This document shows, one piece after another, positions 36,945 through 37,256 of a stretch of DNA of 60,457 nucleotides. This stretch comes from a virus (Duplodnaviria > Caudoviricetes). The DNA is taken from positions 1 to 60,457 of IMG/VR virus record IMGVR_UViG_3300037119_004150; one strand, 5' to 3'. A program made the position numbers and the translations under genes. The notes beneath the pieces were generated by a model, which was not told the origin of the DNA, did no database searches, and saw only the letters and a program-made list of their open reading frames with translations. Position 1 is the first letter of the stretch. Every line of letters starts with the position of its first letter.

Positions 36945-37196
36945 ATGCCAGTTAAGGGAAAAGTTACTTTGCTCGAGGGAGAACGACGCTTTAAGCAGGT
37001 TGATTGGGGCTCTGCCGAACTTCCCCCTTGTCAGGCTCCAATGATGGGCCATGGAGTTCTTCAATGCAAGAAGCCAGGAGAGTTCGATACTCCCACTAAA
37101 GCTGGGCCTTGGGCTGACCTTTGCGAGGATCATGTAATTTCCTTGACATACGAACACATTATGATAGGATTTCACCGAATCCGTCATAAGCCATAA
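36945..37196 (+). CDS. Hypothetical Cys/His protein
   Basis: RBS GGAAAGGGG; FDTPTKAGPWADLCEDH motif. Confidence 0.7.
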   Translation: MPVKGKVTLLEGERRFKQVDWGSAELPPCQAPMMGHGVLQCKKPGEFDTPTKAGPWADLCEDHVISLTYEHIMIGFHRIRHKP

Positions 37197-37256
37197 CTCG
37201 ACTAGGCGAGGATAAATAGAAGTTAAGCCTAGTGCGGCCCCAATCGGGGCATCTTA
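37196..37256 (+). ncRNA. Pistol self-cleaving ribozyme
   Basis: P1 CUCG/CGAG, loop ACUAGG pairing with CCUAGU (pseudoknot), AUAAAUAG linker, P2 AAG/CUU, UUAAG, conserved GCG, P3 GCCCC/GGGGC, purine-U at scissile position. Confidence 0.85.

Follow-up and report, generated by a model that had tools for sequence, protein, structure and literature searches.

What does a self-cleaving RNA do when its first base is the last base of a viral stop codon? This question is raised by a locus in the IMG/VR virus record IMGVR_UViG_3300037119_004150, which we analysed as a single stretch of 60,457 bp (the window; CheckV completeness estimate 100%), and in which an initial annotation made from the letters of the sequence had placed a pistol ribozyme at 37196–37256 on the + strand. 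Scanning with cmscan gave a match to the Rfam Pistol model RF02679 at precisely this position and with the same cut site, with 55.4 bits where the gathering score is 34.5, in agreement with the annotation. The match covers the entire model (positions 1–68 of 68) and has an expectation value (E) of 2.2e-7 for the whole window and both strands; a second Rfam run returned the pistol match with an E of 5.2e-11 for the record and no matches in any of 14 control genomes. By the Rfam scan of the 60,457-bp record, this is its single pistol copy. Between 33000 and 41000, a scan carried to E ≤ 5 gave no other ribozyme family, the sole other match above its cut-off being a transfer RNA (tRNA), tRNA-Leu(UAA), at 38498–38580, and the sole extra match a small nucleolar RNA-like hit of 20.3 bits (cut-off 45).

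The sequence parses into every element of the pistol architecture, in the order proposed by the annotation and with a perfect 6-bp pseudoknot, as follows:

37196–37256, + strand: pistol ribozyme, matched over its full length by RF02679, with covariation in P1 and the pseudoknot
37196–37200 with 37207–37211, + strand: helix P1, CUCG/CGAG, four Watson-Crick pairs and an outer A37196·G37211 mismatch
37201–37206, + strand: P1 loop, ACUAGG, 6 nucleotides (nt), the 5' strand of the pseudoknot
37201–37206 with 37228–37233, + strand: pseudoknot, closed with CCUAGU, 6/6 pairs Watson-Crick
37212–37218, + strand: linker AUAAAUA, followed by G37219
37219–37222 with 37253–37256 (CUUA), + strand: helix P2, pairs A37220-U37255, A37221-U37254 and G37222-C37253, plus G37219·A37256
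37223–37227, + strand: UUAAG, the strand segment between P2 and the pseudoknot
37234–37236, + strand: GCG
37237–37250, + strand: helix P3, GCCCC-AAUC-GGGGC, five pairs and a tetraloop
37251–37252, + strand: 2-nt junction A37251-U37252, with the predicted scissile bond A37251/U37252 placed by alignment to the model

The upstream open reading frame (ORF) ends in a TAA stop codon at 37194–37196, the last A of which is the first base of the ribozyme (one base in common, a distance of 0), and the ribozyme lies on the same strand as the promoters and genes around it. Short motifs can arise randomly, and this general point is the only one in favor of a chance resemblance that lacks RNA function; against it stand the low E, a full-length match that includes all helices, the absence of matches from the control genomes, and a location right after a stop codon, within a non-coding gap and on the coding strand, as is the case for most viral pistols. 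Chance resemblance is effectively excluded by the E, the full-length match and the placement, and from its sequence we are highly confident that the element at 37196–37256 is a true pistol ribozyme.

We compared the element with 42 other viral pistols, comprising 41 Rfam-verified pistols from 26 IMG/VR loci and one from Cellulosimicrobium phage DS1. An alignment (A2) was made of 41 viral pistols including the window over an aligned stretch of 41 nt, with loci L027 and L022 omitted as identical over this stretch to the retained rows L010:10752 and L017. Pairing in P1 and the pseudoknot is maintained by covariation: 98.9% of the alignment cells are paired, 11 of the 12 pairs vary on both sides, and none of 500 shuffles matched this result, with all six pseudoknot pairs covarying across the 41 viral pistols. 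The window pseudoknot (ACUAGG/CCUAGU) is related by compensating changes to the Rfam consensus (UCUGGG/CCCAGA), and the window departs from the A2 pairing of P1 and pseudoknot only at the outermost P1 pair. All invariant columns of A2 (U18, A19, A20, A21, A23, G24, U29, A30, G32, G39 and C40) are present in the window, where it is to be considered that the linker positions in 27 of the 41 rows were fixed by the search pattern, such that the window and 13 rows (12 found only by Rfam, and DS1) are the independent observations. G24, which opens the 5' strand of P2, is invariant in 41 of 41 aligned pistols. Catalysis in the env25 pistol has been assigned to purine-32, the G33-C41 pair, G40 and G42 (PMC6154101), and the corresponding candidate active-site residues in the window are A37226, G37227-C37235, G37234 and G37236, the numbering being transferred from env25 by way of the Rfam consensus alignment.

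Two features of the element, a P2 of three base pairs and AU in place of GU at the cut site, had been described as deviations from the class. When the ends are taken from Rfam, 28 of the 42 other viral pistols carry GU at the junction and 4 carry AU, and based on our own parse an AU cut site is found in 6 of 29 viral pistols; these counts are approximate and are given by both methods, as our parse and the 3' ends from cmscan differ in several copies that score low and have long P3 inserts (e.g., L004, L008, L011, L017, L020, L025, L026, L028). P2 has three of four standard pairs in 13 of the 29 parsed viral pistols, an outer G·A is likewise present in 13 of 29, and a three-pair P2 with an outer G·A is the commonest form of this helix. 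Passages of Harris et al. (2015; PMC4604425) describe pistol cleavage at a "modestly conserved GU dinucleotide", the identity of which varies while the junction keeps a strictly conserved length. Because the same forms recur in other viral pistols and GU is only modestly conserved, the three-pair P2 and the AU junction of the window represent normal variation and not deviations. No test of A at the pistol cut site was found in the cut-site and mutagenesis literature that we searched.

The element is a single copy whose P1 opens with an A·G, whose P3 is short and whose P2 has three pairs, and it might also be an inactive or barely active relic, one that arrived with an inserted spacer and is absent from relatives, with the transcript end set by the terminator that is present downstream anyway. 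A decaying element of 61 nt would, however, be expected to have lost core bases, whereas every invariant and catalytic position of the window copy is intact, its pseudoknot is perfect, its 55.4 bits are a mid-range score among 41 viral pistols (38.2–74.3), and all of its variants occur in other natural copies. We consequently regard decay as improbable, and judge from the sequence that the pistol at 37196–37256 likely cuts itself.

The position of the ribozyme relative to the surrounding genes suggests what such a cut would act upon. The features flanking the ribozyme are:

36623–36651, + strand: sigma-70-type promoter, TTGACA, 17 nt and TG-n-TATAAT, with 12/12 hexamer matches and an extended -10 TG
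36658–36942, + strand: ORF1, 94 amino acids, with its start codon at the predicted transcript start
36945–37196, + strand: ORF2, 83 amino acids, a small Cys/His protein, with stop codon TAA at 37194–37196
37257–37350, + strand: non-coding tail between ribozyme and terminator
37351–37384, + strand: probable intrinsic terminator, 12-pair stem AGGCUCUGAGAG / CUCUCAGGGCUU, loop GACG, then UUUUCUGU
37415–37443, + strand: promoter of ORF3, of the same family, placed by aligned copies
37450–37788, + strand: ORF3, a separate unit with its own promoter

The terminator was identified from folds, in which an outer extension of eight further pairs brings the hairpin to 37342–37387; the terminator consensus scan listed none there. 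Near-identical promoters of the form TTGACA-N17-(G)GTTTGATATAAT occur across positions 33593–52032 of the window, at 33593, 34747, 36061, 36623, 37415, 38886, 44572, 48727 and 52004. At the 36623 promoter the ATG lies 6 nt past the -10 box, and because ATGATG starts 6 nt after the -10 box at the promoters at 36623, 37415, 38886 and 44572, the messages from these four are probably leaderless. The leaderless transcript of 36658–37382 put forward by the annotation is thus plausible, with a perfect 12/12 promoter at one end and a terminator hairpin at about 37351–37384 at the other; the separate 3' RNA that the annotation also proposed has no detectable structure beyond the terminator and no relatives.

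On the basis of these features we propose the following mechanism. Host RNA polymerase would start at the 36623 promoter and produce a leaderless ORF1-ORF2 message, with the transcript passing through the ribozyme and a tail of about 95 nt before stopping at the hairpin terminator near 37384. Once 37196–37256 has been transcribed, the RNA would fold into P1, the six-pair pseudoknot, P3 and P2, and the 2'-OH of A37251 would attack its own 3' phosphate, with G37234 as the counterpart of env25 G40 and with A37226 and G37227 as the counterparts of A32 and G33. After the cut, the messenger RNA (mRNA) would end 55 nt past the stop codon in a compact ribozyme body carrying a 2',3'-cyclic phosphate. 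The remaining 3' fragment, some 130 nt long and bearing the terminator and a 5'-OH, should fall off at once because nothing but three P2 pairs tethers it. RNA processing immediately past the stop codon, and not the terminator, would in this way set where the message ends, and such a processing-defined end should determine the stability of the message. Overall, the best explanation of the locus, in which we place moderate confidence, is that a working pistol ends a two-gene message of an uncultured phage; as to the role stated here in the fate of that message, we consider the case evenly balanced.

The cut could alternatively serve to release the 3' fragment of about 130 nt as a functional small RNA, with a 5'-OH and protected by the terminator, that acts on a phage or host target. 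Consistent with this possibility are the approximately 95 nt without an ORF between ribozyme and terminator (the + strand of 37257–37350 contains no ORF of at least 30 amino acids), and the long gene-free tails found after other stop-abutting pistols (479 nt in DS1 and 314–399 nt in L003, L009 and L013). A five-pair hairpin, CUUAC/GUAAG, can also form at the new 5' end, with a predicted -2.5 kcal/mol that is reached by 1 of 200 shuffles; in the folding model this hairpin might help to release the 3' fragment or might weakly compete with the 3' strand of P2. The tail without the terminator (37252–37341) folds no better than shuffled sequence, however, with a z of -0.21 and 79 of 200 shuffles being equal or better; inclusion of the terminator hairpin (37252–37392) gives a z of -3.84. 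Nor was similarity of the tail found to the regions downstream of the 42 other pistols, to related loci or to GenBank phages. Its best complementarity within the phage spans 13 nt (37262–37274 with 4937–4949; E 0.059 within the window) and falls inside a 401-amino-acid ORF at 4497–5702 (+ strand), not at a start site, and is probably due to chance. The fragment that would be released is neither conserved nor, terminator aside, unusually stable, one or the other of which would mark a processed small RNA from a 3' untranslated region (UTR). We therefore regard release of a functional small RNA as unlikely, and the tail is most likely a by-product.

To determine how usual it is for a pistol to begin at a stop codon, we surveyed the 42 other viral pistols for ORFs of at least 50 amino acids, or frames open at the edge of the locus, that end within 400 nt upstream, these not being curated gene calls. 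Such an ORF end was found for 38 of the 42. A stop codon lies within -11 to +9 of the first base of the pistol in 25 of the 42, with 12 at -3 to 0, six at +9 (a UAG or UAA within the P1 loop) and one at +4, and by locus at least one stop-abutting pistol is present in 15 of 27. For comparison, 5.4% of random positions have an ORF end within -11 to +9. If pistols were placed uniformly within their own gaps, 11.6 of 35 would be expected to abut a stop codon and 23 of 35 do so; where the gap measures 250 nt or more, 6 of 14 do so, compared to a summed expectation of 0.68 (our own sum over the table of per-gap expectations). A position abutting the stop codon is thus the majority pattern for pistols in viral contigs, and the context in the window is the usual one; the clean context to which the initial annotation had attached special value does not set this copy apart. 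In two of the sources of these pistols, the arrays of L015 and L021, each pistol is succeeded by a conserved leader with a Shine-Dalgarno sequence, and an ATG stands about 28 nt past the ribozyme. Together with the stop-abutting placement, these leaders fit the view that the ribozymes sever messages just past their stop codons.

The same placement raises the question of whether translation gates the cut. The mRNA covered by a terminating ribosome would span P1 and the pseudoknot loop, and one might suppose that only untranslated messages fold the ribozyme and are cut. The stop-codon placement would then itself be functional, self-cleavage reporting on translation such that only idle messages are severed from their terminator or next gene. 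This idea draws on the 25 of 42 pistols that start close to a stop codon, seven of which have the stop within P1 or the P1 loop, at +4 or +9, and on the persistence of the pattern in the long gaps, where there is room for the pistol to lie elsewhere. On the other hand, much of the pattern is accounted for by tight packing when gaps are short, the uniform expectation there being already 11.6 of 35, and the nearest ORF end is 31–397 nt away for 13 of the 38 pistols that have one. Pistol cutting is fast in vitro, with a projected maximum rate of more than 100 per min given in passages of Harris et al. (2015; PMC4604425), and a brief ribosome-free interval may suffice for it. Our literature searches, which did not extend to the discovery paper of Weinberg et al. 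(2015), turned up no paper that proposes or tests such gating for pistols, nor one that states a gene-end placement for them, although an earlier statement of the latter in that paper is possible. We consider it unlikely that translation controls the cut, and just as unlikely that the stop-codon placement is functional in this sense.

Relatives of the virus and of the cassette genes provide information on where the ribozyme came from. The primase-helicase at 40260–42362 has its nearest counterparts in phages of Curtobacterium, Microbacterium and Gordonia (39–45% identity), and DS1 is the sole named phage with a similar pistol copy in a blastn search of 50,697 GenBank phage records, a search that divergent pistols would escape. 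The primase comparison suggests that the host is actinobacterial and that the phage is an actinophage; DS1, too, belongs to the actinophages. Two relatives were found by primase, L029 (genome G001, the closest complete relative, with a primase 53% identical) and L030 (G002, partial). None of the 11 window ORFs within 36658–40172 has a homologue in the fetched L029 and L030 regions, and it is on this account that the cassette sits, by sequence comparison, in a variable block as an accessory early cassette.

Protein family searches found no Pfam family for ORF1, ORF2 or ORF3 and no PHROG family for ORF1; the metagenome loci L031 and L034 carry partial homologues of ORF1, and ORF2 matches phrog_23287, of unknown function, weakly. 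The N-terminus of ORF3 is Cys-rich (C-x-C-E-D-Y-P-C-C-G-H-Y-D). Homologues of ORF2 were absent from viral contigs by search with either the single sequence or alignment A1, the latter of which recovered homologues in six metagenome loci; the family as aligned in A1 has ten members and the invariant residues C29, C41, C60, H63 and H77. No resemblance to ORF2 was found among 25 ORFs upstream of other pistols, which contain two similarity groups, a family from L006, L011 and L013 and a pair from L010 and L027 that is the same element in two records. Two of these loci, L032 and L033, have a homologue of ORF3 directly behind the ORF2 homologue, the two genes being joined as TGA-cg-ATG or overlapping as TGATG. 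These adjoining homologues are located at:

L032, 1135–1530: ORF2 homologue and ORF3 homologue
L033, 1650–2221: ORF2 homologue and ORF3 homologue

The abutting or overlapping arrangement suggests a joint function of the two products, and these homologues are probably translationally coupled, judging from their spacing. The window has instead a spacer of 253 nt at 37197–37449, made up of pistol, tail, terminator and promoter, which is absent from L032 and L033. The pistol is thus lineage-specific here, and the simpler reading, based on five loci only, is that the spacer was gained in the window lineage rather than lost in the others.

Several of our observations weigh against a working pistol that ends the two-gene message. 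Within the ribozyme, the outermost P1 pair is A·G, a mismatch found in just 2 of 39 distinct viral sequences (the window and one other copy), P3 has five pairs compared to eight in the Rfam consensus, and the weak hairpin downstream of the cut could rival the three-pair P2. With respect to the transcript, no gene follows on the same RNA and the terminator lies only about 95 nt on, so that the benefit of a cut is not obvious; the cut might either stabilise or destabilise the message. With respect to conservation, the pistol is missing from the closest complete relative G001, no pistol being detected in either relative (G001/L029 and G002/L030) in the fetched DNA or the whole records, and 0 of 6 loci with ORF2 homologues have a pistol at E ≤ 1, four of the six having informative downstream DNA. 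The ribozyme is not kept alongside its genes and is therefore dispensable for the gene set. Finally, many of the pistols in the placement survey come from two arrays (eight from L021 and six from L015), and the ORF calls are crude.

The element belongs to a known RNA class, lies in the usual setting for that class, was found by a routine Rfam search, and does not represent a new type of RNA. Known pistol ribozymes number in the hundreds. A 2019 review (PMC6765202) nonetheless counts most genomically encoded small ribozymes as functional orphans, and the window provides a convenient test case, with one ribozyme in a short leaderless transcript of predicted ends, a cut 55 nt past the stop codon, and relatives in which the flanking genes ORF2 and ORF3 abut without a ribozyme. 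Were translation gating to prove true, its simplest natural test case would be this solitary copy, which stands after a message of two genes without a leader. The placement survey of 42 other viral pistols may itself be of use to specialists, within the limits of its crude ORF calls; the arrangement of a ribozyme at a gene end has been known for hammerheads since 2011 (PMC3088659).

Compared to the pistol class as defined by RF02679, by Harris et al. (PMC4604425) and by the env25 structures 5K7C and 5KTJ (PMC6154101), the window element matches the architecture in order and spacing, and shares the AUAAAUA linker, the UUA-purine-G segment, GCG and the 2-nt scissile junction. It differs by AU in place of the commonest GU, by the outer A·G of P1 and by its short P3 (five pairs and a tetraloop), differences that by sequence comparison all fall within the variation of the 42 other viral copies. 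Pistols commonly occur in phages, as does this one; the class is described in passages of PMC4604425 as prevalent in Firmicutes, whereas the primase of the window virus is nearest to those of actinophages. The pistol of phage DS1 (MW590223.1; L002 2503–2572; unannotated; 66 bits against RF02679) is close in setting: like the window copy it starts within the TAA stop codon of a small gene, whose final A serves as base 1 of P1. The first 15 nt and the UUAAGCCUAGUGCG segment of the two pistols are identical, a gene-free tail follows in both, and the DS1 host is an actinobacterium. DS1 differs in its GU cut site, its longer P3 and an unrelated upstream protein, and its tail measures 479 nt (L002 2573–3051), whereas in the window the next start is 193 nt away, the tail sequences being unrelated. 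The 479-nt stretch contains neither an annotated gene nor an ORF of at least 50 amino acids.

Other pistols of the comparison set occur in different surroundings. In L008 (region 11463–11599), a pistol starts 11 nt past a tRNA, within a large tRNA array that includes a transfer-messenger RNA (tmRNA), and in L020 (region 8161–8435, - strand) a second pistol lies 146 nt downstream of a tRNA; pistols beside tRNA genes may serve in tRNA end processing rather than in mRNA processing. L004 contains a mixed ribozyme cluster, with type II hammerheads at 1903–1976 and 2207–2281 (50.9 and 45.0 bits) situated 1.0–1.4 kb upstream of the pistol at 3269–3350 on the same strand. The P3 inserts, as delimited by our own parse, of L017 (approximately 209–287) and L028 are 77% identical over 83 nt, with shorter matches to L020 (in L028 and L020 these stretches lie just past the pistol ends given by cmscan), which suggests from the sequence a conserved P3 extension in this subgroup of pistols. 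Short matches to the tmRNA model, of about 80 nt, are found in L006 (2724–2806, - strand; 69.9 bits) and L013 (10544–10624, - strand; 63.6 bits), on the same strand as the pistol and about 320 nt and 2.7 kb downstream of it, respectively.

Ribozyme arrays offer a second comparison. For clustered hammerheads, which sit at gene ends in phage and prophage operons, Perreault et al. (2011, PMC3088659) proposed that they divide the long transcripts of a phage into shorter messages, an idea repeated as unproven in the 2019 review (PMC6765202). Among the pistols, L021 carries an array of eight copies in 5.2 kb (3360–8574) and L015 an array of six (306–4313; seven in the whole record), most of these pistols being followed by a leader common to both phages, gaatttaatttaaaaggaga. 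The window and these arrays are alike in having the ribozyme at a phage gene end, and the stop codons in L015 and L021 also abut the pistol. The arrays, however, have a ribozyme in every gap, followed by the Shine-Dalgarno leader and an ATG about 28 nt on, whereas the window pistol is solitary, with the next start 193 nt away, a terminator in between, and a promoter of its own for the next gene in place of a leader. The window thus shares with the arrays a ribozyme that starts at the upstream stop codon, and lacks their recurring ribozymes and nearby ribosome sites.

A third comparison is with glmS, a bacterial self-cleaving RNA whose cut changes the fate of its mRNA. Decay of the glmS message proceeds through its 5'-OH end. 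The glmS ribozyme is located in the 5' UTR and requires a metabolite cofactor, whereas the window pistol is located in the 3' UTR and has no known ligand. It is glmS that is named as the proven case of cleavage altering mRNA fate (PMC6765202).

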